Shown here: positions 23,570-64,000 of the stretch, piece after piece | Position numbering within the stretch: position 1 is the first letter of the stretch | How the letters are laid out: the number at the start of each line of letters is the position of its first letter | From: Escherichia phage pEC-M719-6WT.1 | Sequence record: OQ845957.1 | DNA length: 64,000 nucleotides | Reading direction: 5' to 3' (one strand) | Program-made: the position numbers and the translations under genes | The notes under the pieces: model-generated | Seen by the model: only the letters and a program-made list of their open reading frames with translations | Database searches by the model: none | What the model was told of the DNA's origin: nothing

Positions 23570-23574
23570 GTTTA

Positions 23575-23601
23575 AGGCTCCCGTAAAAAGGAGCCTTTTT
23601 T
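23575..23601. terminator. Stem-loop terminator between convergent gene blocks
   Basis: AGGCTCC-CGTAAAAA-GGAGCCT followed by TTTTTT. Confidence 0.65.
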
Positions 23602-23608
23602 GTATCTA

Positions 23609-24505
23609 TCAACCTACTGACAAGGGAGCTTCAATCTTCCCTGCATGTCGATAGTCTTTGAAACCACCGATAAAGTCACTTGCAGTCATATGTTTGAGGT
23701 CATCCAGACATTTCAAATCTTGAACAATCTCAAACTTCGGTGCAGGAAACTCTTCATTACCTAAAAGCTGGAATACCTGATTCATGTGGTTCTGGTAAAT
23801 CTGAGTATCACCAAAAGTACCAATCAGATAACGAGGTGTATATCCAGTCATCTTGCAAAGCACTTCTAAGATAAAACCATAAGATGCAATGTTAAATGGC
23901 AAACCTAAGAAGCTGTCTACAGAACGTTGATACCATTTTAAATCCACTTCACCAGTATTCGAGATGTAAATCTGGAAAAGCACATGACAAGGTGGTAAAG
24001 CCATTGCATTAGCTGAGATATCAGCAGCATTCCAAGCATTAACCAGCATGTAACGGTCTGTAGGAGACTTTTTCATCTTGGTAATCAGATTGTCTAGCTG
24101 GTCAACTGTAACACCACCATGACCTTCTGAGGCTCTCCACTGTACACCGTAGATACGTCCACCTGCATCATCTAACCAATCTTGCTCGCTTGCATACGTT
24201 GTTTTAAGCCAGCGTCTAAAGTCATTTGTCCAGATTGTCCAACGCTCTCCATCGTTTTCTCCCCAAGTACGATAACGAAGATGACCAAGTTTATTCTCAC
24301 CGTTCAAGAACCATAAAGCTTCCCCGATAACTTGTCTGGTCAGAACCTGTTTAGAGGTCAGTAAAGGGAAACCAGTACGCATATCAAAACGAAACTCTGG
24401 AGGTGAGAACGTTGAAATTACAGAACCAGTTCTGGTTTTACGTTGCTCACCAACTGTTAAAACGTGGTTCAAGATATTTTTGTAGCTTACATCTGCTTGT
24501 GACAT
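23609..24505 (-). CDS. thyA: Thymidylate synthase
   Basis: 298 aa; LPPCH active-site motif and LGLPFNIASY motif present. Confidence 0.9.
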   Translation of the reverse strand: MSQADVSYKNILNHVLTVGEQRKTRTGSVISTFSPPEFRFDMRTGFPLLTSKQVLTRQVIGEALWFLNGENKLGHLRYRTWGENDGERWTIWTNDFRRWLKTTYASEQDWLDDAGGRIYGVQWRASEGHGGVTVDQLDNLITKMKKSPTDRYMLVNAWNAADISANAMALPPCHVLFQIYISNTGEVDLKWYQRSVDSFLGLPFNIASYGFILEVLCKMTGYTPRYLIGTFGDTQIYQNHMNQVFQLLGNEEFPAPKFEIVQDLKCLDDLKHMTASDFIGGFKDYRHAGKIEAPLSVG

Positions 24506-24506
24506 A

Positions 24507-25052
24507 TCAGAATCGTCCTCTTACTTGTGGAACATAAATGTTGAATACAACGCTGTCATCCTTCGATGGTTTTGACTGTATTCTAGCAAAGGTTGACTCA
24601 TCATACAAGTACTCAAAGAAACCCTTGTAAGGAAGCTTCACAGTTGCTTCTTCAGTGACTTCACGAATATATGTTTGGCAAACTGCATCTGCATATGGTA
24701 AAGCTTGGATTAGAATGCTTACCCCGCCAATTATACAAACATCTTGCTCGATACTATTATCAAGATGTTTTAAGAATGCCCCAAAAGCGTCTGAATGAAC
24801 CTTAGCAAACATTACATCTTCTCTACCAAAATCTATACCTTCATACGGTAATGAGTTTGTCAGAACAAGATTATCACGGTCTGGTAAAGGTTTGCTTCCA
24901 AGACTCTTGAAAGTGTCATTACCCATAACTACCAATTGACCTGTGGTAATCTTTTTGAACTCTTGCATGTCTTGCTTATTACGAGGCCAAGGCATACCAG
25001 AAGGGCAACCAAACTCCCCGTTAAGGCCATTTGCAAAAACTAATTTAATCAT
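24507..25052 (-). CDS. Dihydrofolate reductase
   Basis: 181 aa; DHFR-like N-terminus (GMPWP, VVMGNDTFKSLG, PLPDRDNLVLT). Confidence 0.8.
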   Translation of the reverse strand: MIKLVFANGLNGEFGCPSGMPWPRNKQDMQEFKKITTGQLVVMGNDTFKSLGSKPLPDRDNLVLTNSLPYEGIDFGREDVMFAKVHSDAFGAFLKHLDNSIEQDVCIIGGVSILIQALPYADAVCQTYIREVTEEATVKLPYKGFFEYLYDESTFARIQSKPSKDDSVVFNIYVPQVRGRF

Positions 25053-25321
25053 TGTGTGAACCCATTTACAATAAACCAGTTAGCAATATTCTTCACAGTT
25101 CTTACTGGATGGAACACTAAACGTGGTTGTGGTTGATAACTACCATAAGCCCAGAAAGAGATGATGTTATTACAATCAGTGCAACGTGTGTACTCTTCTG
25201 CTACATTACCTGTGACAATCTCTGTAACCTCACCTTGGAAATTTGTACCCCCACAATGGGGGCATTTTAAAGGTTCGCCGTCTTGACTGTAGCATTGCTC
25301 AAACTTCTCAAACAGTTTCAT
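25049..25321 (-). CDS. Small zinc-ribbon protein
   Basis: 90 aa; CPHCGG ... CTDCNN cysteine pairs. Confidence 0.5.
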   Translation of the reverse strand: MKLFEKFEQCYSQDGEPLKCPHCGGTNFQGEVTEIVTGNVAEEYTRCTDCNNIISFWAYGSYQPQPRLVFHPVRTVKNIANWFIVNGFTQ

Positions 25322-25839
25322 TTTTTATTCACCTTAAAAGTTTGCTGGATATCAACTACAAAATCTAAGTCATCATGTTCACTTGAACAGAAATCTGTAA
25401 AGTGTTTTGGAACAAAGCTTAGGAACTCCATAGAGCCATAATCACCAGTTAAGGTAATTGAATAGCCATTAGGACATTCAGCGTTTACCACATGTCTTCC
25501 AGCAATAGGCTTAACAATCTCTCTGATATCCTCTATGAAGATATTCAGCAGTGCTTTAAAGCTTTTAGGGTACTGTGTACCAGTGTACAACTCAATGCTT
25601 GCATCCAAACTCACAGTTATGGATTTAGAATCTCTCAACTCAGTTGTAAACAAATGAGATGGAAGAATGCACAGTGAGTCTCCAGTATCTGAATCAACAA
25701 AATCTATAGTTCCAGCATCATAGTTTGTCTCTATCAAAAACTCACCTTCAAGCAAGTTACGATTTTTTAAATGGCTAAGAATCGTACTTTTAAGCAAGAC
25801 TGCTTCGGGTTGCTCTAGTGTAGTTCCTATCTTCTGCAT
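25318..25839 (-). CDS. Hypothetical protein
   Basis: 173 aa ORF, overlapping (coupled) starts/stops with neighbours. Confidence 0.5.
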   Translation of the reverse strand: MQKIGTTLEQPEAVLLKSTILSHLKNRNLLEGEFLIETNYDAGTIDFVDSDTGDSLCILPSHLFTTELRDSKSITVSLDASIELYTGTQYPKSFKALLNIFIEDIREIVKPIAGRHVVNAECPNGYSITLTGDYGSMEFLSFVPKHFTDFCSSEHDDLDFVVDIQQTFKVNKK

Positions 25840-25840
25840 A

Positions 25841-26344
25841 TCAAACCTCTACAAATGTTTGCTTCACGTTATCGTATGAGTAGAATTTTATACACTTTTG
25901 AGTATTCCAGTCAACCTTTTCTTTGTAAGAGATACCTTTTGAGATTCTCTTACCAAGAGTTTGATAGATGATATCTCGCAGCTTTCTGTACTCAGGTGCA
26001 TCATCTAAAACTTTTGCATCTGTAGTTGCCTTGTAACCATCTATAGAACGTTGATTCCAATCCTGCTGAGTTGGTGACATTGGCTTGTAAAGCTGTGGTA
26101 GATGGTTGTAAAGCATGTTACCTTCTTCTAAAGCAAGCTTCAGTTGGTGAAGATACTCATTCAAACGACCATCCTCTTCAAGCCATTCATACAGAGACTG
26201 TAAAGCTCCTAGATTGTTATTGTAATGTGCAGCACGTTTCACAGAACCTTTGTCAGTACGATAAGGTGACTTTGGCAGACTCAGTATCTGACCTTTCAAC
26301 ACATTAAACCCAAAGACCAAATCTATTTTCATGGGAAGAGACAT
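25841..26344 (-). CDS. Hypothetical protein
   Basis: 167 aa ORF. Confidence 0.5.
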   Translation of the reverse strand: MSLPMKIDLVFGFNVLKGQILSLPKSPYRTDKGSVKRAAHYNNNLGALQSLYEWLEEDGRLNEYLHQLKLALEEGNMLYNHLPQLYKPMSPTQQDWNQRSIDGYKATTDAKVLDDAPEYRKLRDIIYQTLGKRISKGISYKEKVDWNTQKCIKFYSYDNVKQTFVEV

Positions 26345-26688
26345 TTGATATCCTCATTTTTAAATACAAAAGTTGTGTAGTTAGTACCTTCAACATCTAA
26401 CCAGATAGCAGTAGCATCAACACCATCAAGGTTGTTGAAAAGTTCTTTGATGAACGAGTTACGAACATCCTTTGCACAGGTTGTCTCAAGTTTAATGTTT
26501 GAGATTGCTGAACCAATTGCCATATAGCCTTTGACACGATTCTTCTCAGAATGCTTGATATCACCTTTCTGTAGTTTAGCAATCATCTCTACAAGAATCC
26601 CATGCCCCCATACCTTCTCAGCCTCTGTAGGCTTACTATAAAAACCAATTGCAAAGTTGCCTTTAAAGATTGCATTTTCACGTTTCAT
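26329..26688 (-). CDS. Hypothetical protein
   Basis: 119 aa ORF. Confidence 0.5.
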   Translation of the reverse strand: MKRENAIFKGNFAIGFYSKPTEAEKVWGHGILVEMIAKLQKGDIKHSEKNRVKGYMAIGSAISNIKLETTCAKDVRNSFIKELFNNLDGVDATAIWLDVEGTNYTTFVFKNEDIKCLFP

Positions 26689-26689
26689 A

Positions 26690-26989
26690 CTAATCTACCT
26701 TACTTAAGTTGAAGTTTAAGCCAAGTTTATCACAAACACTAATCATGTAGTCAAGAGATACTTTCCCACTACCATTCAGAATGTTTGAGACTCTGGCTTG
26801 AGATATTTCACAAATCTTTGCTACCTGAATCTGTGAAAGGTTGTTTCTTTTCATGTGGATGTTTAACTTTTCAGAGATGTAAAACTTCATCTCATCAACA
26901 TCCATTCCTGCTATATAAGCTTCCATTTCAGCCTCTCTATCTGCCCCCCAATCATCTTGAGGTGCATAAGGGTCAAAGATACTATTCAT
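26690..26989 (-). CDS. XRE-family helix-turn-helix DNA-binding protein
   Basis: 99 aa; LSQIQVAKICEISQARVSNILNG helix-turn-helix-like segment. Confidence 0.55.
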   Translation of the reverse strand: MNSIFDPYAPQDDWGADREAEMEAYIAGMDVDEMKFYISEKLNIHMKRNNLSQIQVAKICEISQARVSNILNGSGKVSLDYMISVCDKLGLNFNLSKVD

Positions 26990-27185
26990 CTTTCTTTCTC
27001 CGTTTACGAGAAGTGTCGATTAACGAATCAAGGTTAGTAGCTCTAACTTGTTCACGAGTACCATTGATGTAGTTATCAAGGGACTCTACAACAGTGTTGA
27101 AGTCTTTAGCCCAAACTCTGTAAATAACTACGCCGTCATCGTCAATAACTTCACCATAGTCTACTCTACAGATACTCTTCTTCAT
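26982..27185 (-). CDS. Small hypothetical protein, overlaps HTH gene by 8 nt
   Basis: 67 aa ORF, basic C-terminus. Confidence 0.45.
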   Translation of the reverse strand: MKKSICRVDYGEVIDDDGVVIYRVWAKDFNTVVESLDNYINGTREQVRATNLDSLIDTSRKRRKKDE

Positions 27186-27562
27186 TGTGGAAGACCCATG
27201 CAGTGACGGTTAATGATAAAGTGTTCAACACCGTCTAAAGCACCCTGAGAAACGTGCTCTTTCACAACTTCAATTTCAGCAATCTGCTCAGGGTTAAGAA
27301 CGTCAATGTTTTCTGTAACCATCATATCAGAAACATCAAGGTAGTACTGCCCCATTGTGTGGTAATTGAAATCAATTATCTTGTCAGTTAATTCATAAAC
27401 AGTGTCTTGAGAAATTGGCTTGGTCAATTCTCCAGCTTTAGAAACAACCTTTTTAGCAACCTGACAAGCTTCTACTCTGACGTTGTTGTAATCAATCTTT
27501 GGCATATCTGCATAAGCATTGAGGCTTAGTGCTGCAAAGAGACATAATGTAATCTTTTTCAT
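27182..27562 (-). CDS. Secreted/periplasmic protein
   Basis: 126 aa; N-terminal signal peptide MKKITLCLFAALSLNAYA with AYA-D cleavage-like site. Confidence 0.55.
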   Translation of the reverse strand: MKKITLCLFAALSLNAYADMPKIDYNNVRVEACQVAKKVVSKAGELTKPISQDTVYELTDKIIDFNYHTMGQYYLDVSDMMVTENIDVLNPEQIAEIEVVKEHVSQGALDGVEHFIINRHCMGLPQ

Positions 27563-27737
27563 AACTTACTCCTATATAATATTTTGTATATCTACGAGTA
27601 TAAAAATAAGCTATAACACCTGACTTGTCAACAGATTTTATAGCTTATTTGGCAGATTTTTTATAAGGCTACTGCCATCCTTCCATACCTTACCACACAA
27701 GACCAAACCATGCCGTACTCCACTTCACAGTACCAAG

Positions 27738-27775
27738 CATCACTTAAAAATCCTCTTAAAGACCCTTAAGTGATG
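27738..27775. promoter_or_regulatory. Palindrome CATCACTTAA-N18-TTAAGTGATG (copy 1)
   Basis: Perfect 10-bp inverted arms read directly from sequence. Confidence 0.6.
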
Positions 27776-27824
27776 TAAGTCTCATTTTAATGTAGCTGAG
27801 ACTAACTACCCATACCATGCCTTA

Positions 27825-27892
27825 CACCACCGAACCACACCAAACCACACCAAACCATACCAAACCATACCAAACCATACCATACCAAACCA
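27825..27892. repeat. Tandem ~10-bp repeat array (CAAACCA[C/T]AC x ~6-7)
   Basis: Direct reading: ccaccgaacc acaccaaacc acaccaaacc ataccaaacc ataccaaacc ataccatacc aaacc. Confidence 0.8.
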
Positions 27893-27916
27893 GAGCCTAC
27901 TATACCATACCGAACC

Positions 27917-27953
27917 TCACTTAAAAACCCTCTTAGAAGACTCTTAAGTGATG
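27917..27953. promoter_or_regulatory. Palindrome TCACTTAA-N19-TTAAGTGA (copy 2 of flanking palindrome)
   Basis: Near-identical to copy 1 including loop (AAAACCCTCTTAGAAGACTC vs AAATCCTCTTAAAGACCC). Confidence 0.6.
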
Positions 27954-28017: not shown

Positions 28018-29118
28018 TTATTCATAATCTCGAATAACTAACCCAACAGGGAACTGTAAAGAACCCTTACGAGTCATCTTCTGGAACTGAACCGTTAAAG
28101 GTTTCCCGATAAACTCTTCAGGATGTTCAGCAAGATACTGTTTCTTCTCATGGGTAGTCTTCCATGAAACATCTACAAAGACATTAGGAAGAGTCTCTAC
28201 AACGAACTTACCATGACCACGCTTATCAGTCTTCACACCAGTTACTTTAAATTCCTCTGTGTGCATCTTCTTATGTTTAATCAGGAAGTAAGAACGGTGA
28301 CCACACTCATAGAAAGAATCTGCTGAAATGGAACGGTACATTGCCCCTTCAAACTTCAGCTTAACCCAATTATCATGGGCTTTGTCAAACTCTTCCCAAG
28401 AGTTAACACGTATAGTTTGAACAGGTACAACCTTGCAAGCATCGCCAAGTTCAACGATTGGTGAATTATCAATGATTTCACGTCGCTCAGGCCAAGACTT
28501 AGTGCTATCACAGATATCATACCAGTAGAACTTAAGAAGGTGACGGTCTGGATTGTCAGCATTCTTAATCATTGAAACAATATCTTCCAAATCCCAACCA
28601 TGAGCATAAATCTCACCATCGAAGTCTGCAACTTGTGGATGGCATTTAAGCAGTAAAAGTAAGTCTGGAATTAACTCTTCAGGTACGTTGTACACAGTAT
28701 TTTCACGGGAATAAGCTGTGAAGTTCACTGAGTCAACATCTCTTGAAATCCTGCAACGAACACCATCAAGTTTTGGTTGAGCGTCAGCAGGGAATTTCAA
28801 ATACTTTGCATGACTAACCTTGGAAGCATCATGAGCAAGCTGTACACCTACCTTTTCAGTATTCTGTGCAGACTCTTTTGTGTAAGCATAACCTTTGCGG
28901 TCAACTTGCTTCTTGTACTTAGCAGCAACTTCAAAGAGAGCTTGCTGTTCAGCGTTACGCTCATTCTTTTTACCGATGTTTTTCGGTTCTGCTGTGTACT
29001 CTTCAAACATCATCTTGCCATTCTCTTTACCATAGGTGGTAACAACTTTGTCACCTACAGCAACACATGACCAGACGTTAAAGGAACCATCTTTATTTTG
29101 TTTGTACAGAATTGTCAT
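28018..29118 (-). CDS. ATP-dependent DNA ligase
   Basis: 366 aa; nucleotidyltransferase motif I KLDGVRC (KxDGxR); size similar to T7-type ligase. Confidence 0.7.
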   Translation of the reverse strand: MTILYKQNKDGSFNVWSCVAVGDKVVTTYGKENGKMMFEEYTAEPKNIGKKNERNAEQQALFEVAAKYKKQVDRKGYAYTKESAQNTEKVGVQLAHDASKVSHAKYLKFPADAQPKLDGVRCRISRDVDSVNFTAYSRENTVYNVPEELIPDLLLLLKCHPQVADFDGEIYAHGWDLEDIVSMIKNADNPDRHLLKFYWYDICDSTKSWPERREIIDNSPIVELGDACKVVPVQTIRVNSWEEFDKAHDNWVKLKFEGAMYRSISADSFYECGHRSYFLIKHKKMHTEEFKVTGVKTDKRGHGKFVVETLPNVFVDVSWKTTHEKKQYLAEHPEEFIGKPLTVQFQKMTRKGSLQFPVGLVIRDYE

Positions 29119-30173: not shown

Positions 30174-30234
30174 ATGGCCTCCTATATAAGTTATTGTATA
30201 AGGTACTCTTCCATGAGCACCTTGTCAATACCAA

Positions 30235-62738: not shown

Positions 62739-62767
62739 TTGACCTGTAAAACAAAGGCGTTTAGTAT
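62739..62767 (+). promoter_or_regulatory. Sigma70-like promoter TTGACC-N17-TAGTAT, bracketed by inverted repeat TGCCCGTCT/AGACGGGCA
   Basis: Direct reading; AT-rich UP-like tract upstream; inverted repeat arms at 62692-62700 and 62775-62783. Confidence 0.55.
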
Positions 62768-62816
62768 TTGCATCAGACGGGCAAGCAAGCCCACTTCCTA
62801 AACTGGAGATTCCAAA

Positions 62817-63023
62817 ATGTTATATCAACGCCAATTGATGATTGTAGACAATAACAAGACTAAAAAGCGCCGTTTCTTTATGCTTATCTGTGACGTGTGG
62901 CAAAGAATATCAGAAAAAGATTTTGATAAGTATGTTGATACGTCTATCAAGTCAGATTGTTACTTGACAAATCACACAAGACAGTTTACAAGACATACAG
63001 CAATTTACTACTATGACGTTTAA
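62817..63023 (+). CDS. Small early-type hypothetical protein
   Basis: 68 aa; conserved leader CTAAACTGGAGATTCCAAAATG. Confidence 0.5.
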   Translation: MLYQRQLMIVDNNKTKKRRFFMLICDVWQRISEKDFDKYVDTSIKSDCYLTNHTRQFTRHTAIYYYDV

Positions 63024-63202
63024 AAGGTCTTGACAATGATTAAAGAAGACTATGTAATAAAATACAAAGGTAGTGACGGATACACAAAAATAGGTCGCGT
63101 CTTCTACCTTTACAAGTCAGTTACGGGTAATGACTGCATAGCTCTAACAAATGGCGACAAAATAACCATGAAAGATTTTATAAAAATTATTTCATAAAGT
63201 AC

Positions 63203-63231
63203 TTTACATGGGGTTTAGAGTTCGATAGTAT
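63203..63231 (+). promoter_or_regulatory. Sigma70-like promoter TTTACA-N17-TAGTAT overlapping hairpin TGGGGTTTA/TAAGCCCCA
   Basis: Direct reading; same -10 hexamer and spacing as 62739 promoter. Confidence 0.55.
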
Positions 63232-63281
63232 AAGCCCCAGATAAAGAGCTTTACCAACAATCCTAAACTGGAGAATCTAAA

Positions 63282-63665
63282 ATGAAAAAATACTACATGC
63301 CTAAATTCATCAAAAAAGAAAACTTTCGTGGTGCTCTGGAAAAATCTATGGGCGAACAATTCAAAGGCAAAATAATTGTTGTACACGCATATAATTTTAA
63401 GTATGATGTAAATGGTAACAAGATAAACCACTATAAAGCTACACTGTTAGATGGTACACTCTCAGGAGAAAAGGCTGTTATCCATGCACTTGCAGGACGT
63501 GGTAAGACGCTAATCCGTTGCGATAAACGCCGCTATCAAGGTAGTGCTTACGGTTATGAGGATGCAATCTATCATCTTGATAATATGGGTTACAACGTGG
63601 TAAAAGCTGGAGTATCCCAAATGATTGGTAGTGATGGTTACGTAACAATCTTTGAAATTAACTAA
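63282..63665 (+). CDS. Early-type hypothetical protein
   Basis: 127 aa; conserved leader CTAAACTGGAGAATCTAAAATG. Confidence 0.55.
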   Translation: MKKYYMPKFIKKENFRGALEKSMGEQFKGKIIVVHAYNFKYDVNGNKINHYKATLLDGTLSGEKAVIHALAGRGKTLIRCDKRRYQGSAYGYEDAIYHLDNMGYNVVKAGVSQMIGSDGYVTIFEIN

Positions 63666-63673
63666 TAAAGTGC

Positions 63674-63702
63674 TTTACATGGGGTTTATAAATTGCTAGT
63701 AT
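63674..63702 (+). promoter_or_regulatory. Sigma70-like promoter TTTACA-N17-TAGTAT overlapping hairpin TGGGGTTTA/TAAGCCCCA (second copy)
   Basis: Near-identical to 63203 module. Confidence 0.55.
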
Positions 63703-63754
63703 AAGCCCCAGATAAAGAACTTTATCCAACAACCTAAACTGGAGATTCAAAAAA

Positions 63755-64000
63755 TGGCTACTATCAAAAACATCATTGTTACTGCAAAATCTCGTGATGA
63801 TGCTCGCGCAACTGCTAAAAAATTAAATGGTAAAGTGGTTGACAATGGTAAAAATTCTAATGTAAGATGGGGTGTAAAGACAGACAAAGAATTAACCTTG
63901 AAACATAGCTCTAAAAACCTGTTTAAAGGTGTACAGACTATCGGTAAAACAAATGTATTTACAAAACAAGGTTACAAAATGCACTTGGCATTAACTGACA
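63755..64000 (+). CDS. Early-type hypothetical protein, 3'-truncated by window end
   Basis: ATG after conserved leader CTAAACTGGAGATTCAAAAAATG; open to window end. Confidence 0.5.

Follow-up and report, generated by a model that had tools for sequence, protein, structure and literature searches.

The locus and its genes

We have analyzed a 64,000-nucleotide stretch of DNA from Escherichia phage pEC-M719-6WT.1 (OQ845957.1), referred to here as the window. On the minus strand the order is DNA ligase (28018-29118), a 455-nt intergenic region, and then nine genes ending with thymidylate synthase. These form an operon that runs from a putative promoter P2 (27631) to a bidirectional intrinsic terminator (23574-23597), the equivalent of Felix O1 t79/t80 (PMC3185647, Table 2). 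The two genes that concern us here, encoding proteins of 67 and 99 amino acids, are the second and third of the operon.

All nine genes lie on the minus strand. Gene 1 (27182-27562) encodes a 126-aa secreted protein (phrog_4332, the equivalent of Felix O1 gp87), with a signal peptide (MKKITLCLFAALSLNAYA/DM) and a conserved pair of cysteines. Gene 2 (26982-27185), taken from the list of open reading frames and a family match, encodes the 67-aa protein (phrog_4473, Felix O1 gp86), and gene 3 (26690-26989) encodes the 99-aa protein, assigned to the XRE helix-turn-helix (HTH) family by Pfam and AlphaFold (phrog_1373, Felix O1 gp85). There follow three genes of unknown function, encoding proteins of 119 aa (gene 4, 26329-26688, phrog_4116), 167 aa (gene 5, 25841-26344, phrog_9143) and 173 aa, the last of these acidic (gene 6, 25318-25839, phrog_4422). 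Gene 7 (25049-25321, phrog_2993) encodes a 90-aa zinc-ribbon protein with a CxxC...CxxC arrangement, whose resemblance to the ECs_2282 and Lar families is sub-threshold only. The operon is completed by dihydrofolate reductase (DHFR; gene 8, 24507-25052) and thymidylate synthase (ThyA; gene 9, 23609-24505).

The genes are packed closely together. Within the cluster of seven small genes (25049-27562) the successive junctions measure -4, -8, +1, -16, +1 and -4 nt, with a further -4 nt into DHFR, and all eight junctions between the secreted-protein gene and thyA are either overlaps of 4-16 nt or 1-nt gaps. The original prediction, of seven tightly coupled small genes of unknown function that include a zinc-ribbon protein and a signal-peptide protein, is thus borne out. 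It also placed the cluster downstream of thyA and DHFR. This is true of the plus-strand coordinates only; in the direction of transcription the cluster lies upstream, with DHFR and ThyA coming last in the operon. Variability of the cluster among related phages, which it had proposed to check, holds weakly. Felix O1 lacks the 167-aa gene, and Moogle and SUSP2 have a shortened 173-aa gene, whereas the pair is invariant in position.

The junction of genes 2 and 3

The coordinates confirm that the two reading frames overlap by 8 nt, as had been claimed. The overlap (ATGAATAG) occupies positions 26982-26989 on the minus strand, where the sequence AAAGATGAATAG is read as K D E stop at the end of gene 2 and as M N S at the beginning of gene 3. 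There is a GGAG Shine-Dalgarno sequence 8 nt before the ATG of gene 3, lying within the end of gene 2, and together with the overlap this makes a predicted translational coupling junction. At the other end of gene 2 the ATG overlaps the stop codon of gene 1 (ATGA, 4 nt), and we found no obvious Shine-Dalgarno sequence ahead of this start.

The 8-nt overlap is kept in five of six relatives (Sf13, Moogle, Felix O1, SUSP2 and ESh21), together with the Shine-Dalgarno sequence. In the sixth, a more distant metagenomic relative termed L007, the whole gene order is kept and a 1-nt gap replaces the overlap. We also considered a programmed frameshift that would fuse the 67-aa and 99-aa frames. On inspection the canonical slippery heptamer is absent from the junction and the genes are separate in L007, and we rejected this.

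Since every junction of the operon is tightly packed, the 8-nt overlap is not special here. This bears on a reading in which the two genes are functionally independent, where the HTH protein would regulate alone, the tail of the 67-aa protein would bind a host factor or nucleic acid, and the overlap would be no more than compact packing. That all eight operon junctions are overlaps or 1-nt gaps, and that the overlap is lost in L007, both argue for independence.

The 99-aa protein has an XRE-family fold

The 99-aa protein matches Pfam HTH_3 (PF01381) with E=2.1e-8 and 34.5 bits (cut-off 23), and HTH_37 (PF13744) with E=2.4e-7 and 30.9 bits (cut-off 27), the two matches spanning residues 40-93. 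A match to HTH_26 scores 23.3 bits (cut-off 22). In the AlphaFold model residues 31-95 form a five-helix domain predicted with confidence, preceded by about 28 N-terminal residues of low confidence. Helices lie at residues 14-28, 31-48, 53-59, 64-72 and 79-88, and the pLDDT is 82-90 over residues 31-90. Comparison of the HTH domain with solved structures using Foldseek gave a probability of 1.00 to C.BclI, HipB, 2a6c and 2o38, although the small size of the domain keeps the E-values at only ~0.02. These four, of which 2a6c and 2o38 are HTH_37 proteins, are its closest neighbors among solved structures together with Mycobacterium tuberculosis HigA2 (7ewc). We conclude that the 99-aa protein is a member of the XRE / Cro-C1 HTH family, with the five-helix fold of the lambda repressor. 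The HTH call of the original prediction was therefore right, with both Pfam matches above their cut-offs and the AlphaFold and Foldseek results in agreement.

More specific assignments are less secure. The matches of the protein to particular antitoxin and controller families in NCBIfam and PADLOC all fall far below their cut-offs. Those in NCBIfam are sub-threshold matches to the HipB, HigA and PezA antitoxins, and that in PADLOC is to 'Control_protein' (E=7.5e-5, far below cut-off); PADLOC returned nothing other than generic HTH matches. HTH_37 is itself an antitoxin-rich family.

The conservation of the protein is very uneven. Across seven phages, in proteins that are down to ~50-60% identical, 12 of the 22 positions in the region of the recognition helix (residues 51-72) are invariant, and the recognition helix ISQARVSNI is nearly so. 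Such invariance across divergent phages implies a conserved DNA target, to judge from the alignment. Helix alpha1 (residues 35-50) by contrast has no invariant residue in the seven phages, and the window and ESh21 have in common a distinct version of it (KFYISEKLNIHMKRNN vs REFVSYRFRKEIEKRK). In the relatives compared, no matching change was seen in the 67-aa protein, and this swap of an alpha1 allele without a counterpart in the neighboring protein is a further point in favor of independence. Finally, the N-terminal segment (residues 1-34), which is modeled with low confidence, is acidic (pI 4.05) and strongly conserved (FDPYAPQDDW...EM..Y).

The 67-aa protein has a small core and a conserved basic tail

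The 67-aa protein had been described as a small basic protein. This does not hold for the protein as a whole, which has a pI of 6.24 and a net charge of -0.5. Only residues 44-67 are basic (pI 10.2), and residues 1-43 are acidic (pI 4.4). The predicted core is a small beta-hairpin plus a helix at residues 9-40, giving ~32 structured residues. Beyond this lies a C-terminal tail of residues 44-67 (...VRATNLDSLIDTSRKRRKKDE), which is predicted to be disordered (pLDDT <50) and is nearly invariant. It is the best-conserved part of the protein, with 14 of the 19 residues at positions 44-62 invariant. Twelve of these 14 residues are encoded by more than one codon, and so the constraint acts on the peptide and not on a ribosome binding site or the RNA. 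We can therefore rule out conservation of the tail as a by-product of the embedded ribosome binding site.

A HMMER search of 1.84 billion representative proteins gave one true match, from a Felix O1-like phage, and one spurious match to a repetitive sequence; there were no bacterial or plasmid homologues in this set. Family and fold searches revealed no likeness to any toxin family or solved fold. Structure prediction and fold search, which the original prediction had proposed, thus delivered an XRE fold for the HTH domain and a core in the 67-aa protein that matches no solved fold.

The best-conserved parts of both proteins are therefore predicted to be disordered, from which we infer that they are binding segments. 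They are complementary in charge, with a pI of 10.2 for the tail of the 67-aa protein and 4.05 for the N-terminus of the regulator. Both candidate interface segments are too invariant to reveal covariation.

The pair is conserved among Felix O1-like phages

The source phage is Felix O1-like (Ounavirinae). Phages of this type find wide application in typing and biocontrol. The locus matches 257 records of Felix O1-group phages, of the genera Felixounavirus, Mooglevirus and Suspvirus, and its best nucleotide matches are to the Shigella phages Sf13 and ESh21 at 77-80% identity. A tblastn search finds 256 phage records with the 67-aa protein and 258 with the HTH protein, and these make up a single set of Felix O1-like phages. 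A check of synteny, also proposed at the outset, was positive, in that genes 2 and 3 abut in nine of nine records among the matches listed for both proteins, and gene order is kept even in L007. Calculated against six relatives, dN/dS ranges from 0.05 to 0.30 in the 67-aa gene and from 0.04 to 0.44 in the HTH gene, and both reading frames are under purifying selection. To judge from these comparisons the pair is core, syntenic and vertically inherited, and not a patchy mobile module.

The strict co-occurrence and adjacency of the two genes, in ~256 genomes (adjacency being nine of nine among the matches listed), speaks against their independence. On the other side, their nearest relatives differ. 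Among the matches listed, the best match of the 67-aa protein is to Moogle-type phages (91%). That of the HTH protein is to ESh21 (93%), and its identity to the others is just 57-63%. This indicates that recombination can separate the two genes, consistent with independence.

The orthologues in Felix O1 are gp85 (Felix01p155) and gp86 (Felix01p158), with amino-acid identities of 63% for the HTH protein and 54% for the 67-aa protein, and those in SUSP1 are agp035 and agp036. In both phages the gene order and 8-nt overlap are as in the window, and the pair occupies the same position between the genes for the secreted protein and the 119-aa protein in the ligase-to-thyA block. The window pair differs from these in sequence divergence only, including the version of alpha1. 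Felix O1 gp85 has been annotated as a 'transcriptional regulator' (pfam01381) since 2010, with gp86 as hypothetical (PMC3185647). The gene pair is therefore genuine, but it is an ordinary one that had already been annotated: a further copy of a regulator and hypothetical protein recorded since 2010, 93-98% identical to public sequences.

Some functional information is available from these relatives. In Felix O1 the neighboring genes gp83, 84, 87 and 88 reach peak expression at 25 min by RT-PCR, gp85 and gp86 lying outside the assay (PMC3185647, Table 3). A CRISPRi-ART screen of SUSP1 in laboratory E. coli scored agp031-agp037 all as 'Not Fit' (PMC11879866, supplement 16). These are the orthologues from thyA through the secreted-protein gene, with the HTH protein as agp035 and the small gene as agp036 (PMC11879866). 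The screen has an acknowledged false-negative rate, and ligase was likewise 'Not Fit' (PMC11879866). Thus the SUSP1 counterparts of the pair are dispensable in the laboratory, in a screen with known false negatives. As regards the role in host takeover or anti-defense that had been suggested for such clusters, the scores are compatible with a conditional or accessory function, without demonstrating one.

Comparison with toxin-antitoxin, controller and switch systems

The geometry of the pair had suggested either a toxin-antitoxin-like module or a Cro/regulator pair. In the first of these the closest comparison is with HigB2/HigA2-type modules, in which a small gene comes first, the frames overlap, and the second protein has a disordered N-terminus followed by an XRE HTH domain. 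Applied here, this scheme would cast the 67-aa protein as an inhibitor of growth. The HTH protein would neutralize it through its disordered N-terminus, and would in addition repress the promoter. The gene order, the overlap, the HTH_37 domain and the disordered N-terminal extension of the HTH protein all fit, there are the sub-threshold NCBIfam matches to HipB, HigA and PezA, and M. tuberculosis HigA2 (7ewc) is among both the sequence and the fold neighbors of the 99-aa protein. However, the upstream protein is not a toxin of RelE/ParE fold, its core of ~32 residues being unlike any toxin family or solved fold, and no bacterial or plasmid homologue was present among the 1.84 billion representatives. 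The pair has no cellular homologues and no autonomous promoter, lying inside a nine-gene operon, and its distribution is core and vertical in a virulent phage lineage. Every antitoxin family match is far below cut-off, and knock-down at the start site of the SUSP1 HTH gene carried no fitness cost (PMC11879866, supplement 16). Thus what stands of the toxin-antitoxin suggestion is the HigB2/HigA2-like geometry and the HTH_37 domain; the toxin fold, homologues, promoter and patchy distribution are all absent. We consider such a module very improbable and reject it, since fold, distribution and the arrangement of the operon all speak against it.

The suggestion of a Cro/regulator pair fails in a simpler way. 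The two genes are co-directional within a DNA-metabolism operon, with no divergent repressor gene in the neighborhood, and a Cro/CI lysis-lysogeny switch does not fit this arrangement. The relatives are Ounavirinae, virulent phages, with Felix O1 described as lytic/virulent (PMC3185647).

The controller (C) proteins of R-M systems (C.BclI, C.AhdI and C.Esp1396I) are the best structural neighbors of the HTH domain. These are small XRE proteins that are co-transcribed with the genes whose timing they set. The present protein differs in having an extra acidic N-terminus of 30 residues, and we found no R-M genes or C-box-like operator. A possible working analogy for the 67-aa protein, by description only, is provided by paratox (Prx), reportedly a small phage protein that binds the XRE DNA-binding domain of ComR (PDB 7n1n, from its entry title). 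The DNA-binding domain of ComR is among the fold neighbors of our HTH domain, at rank 39.

The analysis disposes of a tempting but mistaken toxin-antitoxin label, and it also directs attention to the neighboring intergenic region.

The intergenic region contains vrRNA-like arrays

The 455-nt region upstream of the operon is a more remarkable feature than the gene pair. It is headed by a predicted strong promoter (TTGACA-16-TATACT, 28011-27984, minus strand), followed by two units of VIPR type, in each of which a hairpin (CACTTAAG...CTTAAGTG) is followed by repeated GGYNN pentamers and then a tail. The first array has 21 GGYNN units (18 with an intact GGY) and the second has 11 (six with an intact GGY). 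The tails contain two interleaved stems, such as GTAG/CTAC with AGTCTCA/TGAGACT. VIPR was described in 2026 in phage SUSP1 (type II), where the RAMP-like Vipr protein reads the NN of GGY/NN repeats for DNA recognition (bioRxiv 10.64898/2026.04.26.720920,.720927). By their sequence organization the two arrays match the vrRNAs, the guide RNAs of this system, and we describe them as vrRNA-like and orphan. Rfam and tRNA scans of the 455-nt region gave no matches. Applying the published 1-nt-skip rule, we found no perfect match to a target of either array in a collection of viral contigs, and none within three mismatches in the window.

In SUSP1, SUSP2 and Moogle, genes for proteins of 195 and 146 aa lie between such arrays, and the 195-aa protein is consistent with the ~20 kDa size given for Vipr. 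Neither vipr nor vap1 was found in the 64-kb window, where tblastn with SUSP2 Vipr (195 aa) and the 146-aa protein gave chance matches only (E >3). A Vipr hidden among the neighboring 119-, 167- and 173-aa proteins was also rejected, hhalign against a Vipr profile giving a probability of ~0.1%. The 195-aa protein is found in ~118 Felix O1-like records, so that roughly half of the genomes bearing the pair have no vipr. The tail of the last vrRNA and the adjoining promoter occur in 230 records, and the gene pair in ~256; Sf13 and ESh21 keep the pair and have no vrRNA array upstream.

The operon promoter P2 is predicted to be sigma-70-like (27603-27631, minus strand; TTGACA-17-TATTTT, with TATACT 6 nt further), matching the consensus at 10 of 12 positions. 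Over approximately 100 nt around P2 the window does not differ from Moogle, Felix O1 or SUSP2. This final part of the intergenic region comprises the vrRNA tail, an AT-rich hairpin and U-run, with the -35 hexamer held in the loop, and the -10 region. The hairpin arises from an inverted repeat with 19-nt arms (a 47-nt palindrome) around the -35 hexamer (27604-27650, minus strand). As RNA it has a folding energy of -17.8 kcal/mol (z=-4.2), and the L007 version, with compensatory changes, -19.8 kcal/mol (z=-5.9). The hairpin probably terminates transcription of the vrRNA array that precedes it, and is joined directly to P2. The guide-RNA array would thus run, at its end, straight into a combined terminator/promoter cassette from which the operon starts.

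We considered whether the 47-nt palindrome, the only one at the operon promoter, could be the operator of the regulator. It forms a strong RNA hairpin followed by a U-run, there are compensatory changes in L007, and Sf13 and ESh21 lack the palindrome yet keep the regulator; we therefore set it aside in this role, a terminator hairpin in the RNA being the better explanation. A search for a repeated palindromic operator motif in the 27 intergenic gaps of the window gave nothing consistent. Ahead of gene 1 there is a conserved AU-rich leader with a Shine-Dalgarno sequence (TATACAAAATATTATATAGGAG; 27569-27590, minus strand), present in seven of seven loci compared. A second copy of this leader and Shine-Dalgarno sequence lies at 30179-30200, where none would be expected by chance.

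The relation of the pair to VIPR is one of position. It is the immediate genomic neighbor, with the operon promoter fused to the end of the last vrRNA, but Vipr is much longer than either the 67-aa or the HTH protein, and both of these occur also in phages without arrays. Since vrRNA and Vipr suffice (bioRxiv 10.64898/2026.04.26.720920), and Sf13 and ESh21 keep the pair without an array, the gene pair is not part of VIPR.

The pair could nevertheless be an accessory conflict module, acting in anti-defense, superinfection control or inter-phage warfare and maybe tied to the adjacent guide-RNA locus, where it might for example control the cassette of terminator and promoter that lies between that array and the operon. 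The operon begins right after the last vrRNA in 230 records, none of the SUSP1 orthologues is needed on a laboratory host, which is usual for conditional genes, the product of gene 1 is secreted, and the zinc-ribbon protein is faintly Lar-like. Yet none of the ~256 genomes is without the pair, not even Sf13 and ESh21, which have no array upstream, or the half or so without vipr, VIPR works heterologously with vrRNA and Vipr alone (bioRxiv 10.64898/2026.04.26.720920), and the PADLOC matches are only to generic HTH proteins. We regard a conflict role as improbable.

The role of the pair

Our preferred reading, held tentatively and with a little less than even confidence, is that the pair provides an accessory, non-essential DNA-binding regulator expressed in the middle period and made with a small partner, the conserved segments of the two proteins binding each other or one shared partner. 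The product of gene 3 would be a small XRE-family protein that binds DNA sequence-specifically and serves as an accessory regulator of transcription. It would be made in the middle period from the sigma-70-type promoter, within a block of genes for ligase and nucleotide metabolism, and translational coupling would ensure that the 67-aa partner is made alongside it. The basic tail of the 67-aa protein and the acidic N-terminus of the regulator would be the parts that bind, either to each other or to a partner that both proteins share, and the 67-aa protein may thereby modulate the regulator. What we infer in this scheme is that the regulator binds DNA at a specific target, that the two proteins are physically linked, and that expression falls in the middle period. 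The 'Not Fit' scores of the SUSP1 orthologues indicate that the HTH protein is not an essential master regulator on the laboratory host.

The main rival to a regulator with its partner is the functional independence of the two genes. The tight packing of every junction, the loss of the overlap in L007, the alpha1 allele swap and the differing nearest relatives speak for it. It must however account for two best-conserved, disordered and oppositely charged segments being encoded side by side, as well as for the strict co-occurrence of the genes, and we consider it somewhat unlikely.

A more specific version of partnership is a phage-specific switch of regulator and anti-regulator, in which the two invariant disordered segments, the basic tail and the acidic N-terminus, would fold on each other. 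We think this unlikely. If it were true, the switch would have the wiring of a toxin-antitoxin system without the toxin, and would determine when middle transcription takes place, or else act as a gate on the cassette between the VIPR array and the operon. Temporal control in Felix O1 is unexplained, and no factor that modifies the promoter specificity of host RNA polymerase was found (PMC3185647). Since no temporal regulator is known in Felix O1-like phages (PMC3185647), such a switch could be part of the missing control. The HTH protein is the sole regulator assigned in this gene block in the Felix O1 genome paper (PMC3185647), and its DNA target or the role of the 67-aa protein, once defined, would give a first handle on gene timing in these phages.

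Ancestry of the gene pair

Genes 2 and 3 of the operon do not share the same closest relatives. We compared the pair (26690-27185, minus strand) with the corresponding loci of related phages (L001-L006). For the 67-aa protein, identity to Moogle-type phages is 91%; for the HTH protein it is 93% to ESh21 but only 57-63% to all other groups, with most of the divergence lying in helix alpha1 (residues 35-50). Because the relatives of the two proteins differ, and the divergence is confined mainly to helix alpha1, comparison of the sequences suggests that the pair is mosaic in ancestry, an allele having been replaced via recombination within the HTH gene.

Variation and predicted functions within the operon

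The gene content at 25318-26344 is not constant between the window and three of the comparison loci (L002, L003 and L005). Felix O1 lacks the 167-aa gene, and at the position of the 173-aa gene the sole ATG-initiated ORF is shorter, with 154 aa in Moogle and 100 aa in SUSP2, where there is an additional small annotated gene.

The 90-aa zinc-ribbon protein (25049-25321, minus strand) matches the ECs_2282 CxxC family with E = 6e-6 and 26 bits, below the cut-off of 37, and the Lar restriction-alleviation proteins at a sub-threshold E of about 2e-3. A possible anti-restriction role is a lead, nothing more. The first gene of the operon (27182-27562, minus strand) encodes a 126-aa protein with two conserved cysteines and a Sec-type signal peptide, with cleavage after AYA. 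Candidate roles for this protein, a predicted periplasmic product of a virulent phage, are superinfection exclusion or modification of the envelope.

Orphan vrRNA arrays 5' of the operon

On the minus strand at 27650-27935 there are two guide-RNA (vrRNA) elements of the VIPR type described for phage SUSP1, each comprising a hairpin, tandem GGYNN pentamers and a pseudoknot-like tail. The first array has 21 units in which the NN positions are low-complexity TT, AT or GT, and looks like a product of expansion by slippage. The second has 11 units and is partly degenerate. No homologue of vipr or vap1 was found across the entire 64-kb window, and the arrays are therefore orphans, as are those of Felix O1. 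Across the phage collection, ~118 Felix O1-like records contain vipr, and 230 records have the final vrRNA tail together with the promoter. When targets of the arrays were sought under the published 1-nt-skip rule, the viral contig collection gave no perfect match, and the window gave none with up to 3 mismatches.

A conserved cassette and leader

A stretch of ~100 nt (27596-27700, minus strand) does not differ between the window, Moogle, Felix O1 and SUSP2, while the genes that flank it have only ~74% nucleotide identity (Moogle, SUSP). Within it the vrRNA tail is followed by an AT-rich hairpin of 19 bp and a U-run (-17.8 kcal/mol, z = -4.2), and the -35 hexamer of the operon promoter sits inside the hairpin loop. 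Judged by this arrangement, the element is a predicted fused terminator/promoter cassette. Compensatory changes preserve the hairpin in the divergent metagenomic relative L007, and the whole element is missing from Sf13 and ESh21.

A conserved AU-rich leader, TATACAA(N4)TTATATAGGAG, occurs in two copies on the minus strand (27569-27590 and 30179-30200), where none would be expected by chance. It is an imperfect 18-bp palindrome, found at every related locus examined. Each copy immediately precedes the start codon of an operon's first gene, and the two operons are consecutive: one comes after the vrRNA region and the other after the DNA polymerase gene.

Other observations

The 13-nt motif CCTAAACTGGAGA is repeated in three consecutive intergenic gaps (62755, 63198 and 63666) at the window's right end (62755-64000), and the 10-mers that it contains each have 3-4 copies across the window. 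The motif may be related to the repeated sequences that the Felix O1 genome paper (PMC3185647) reports for the early region.

Two records matched in the phage collection, 'Campylobacter phage A126' and 'Staphylococcus phage SA1' (H39 and H59), contain Felix O1-like sequence with the gene pair, and the latter also has vipr. Both are probably mislabelled or contaminated.
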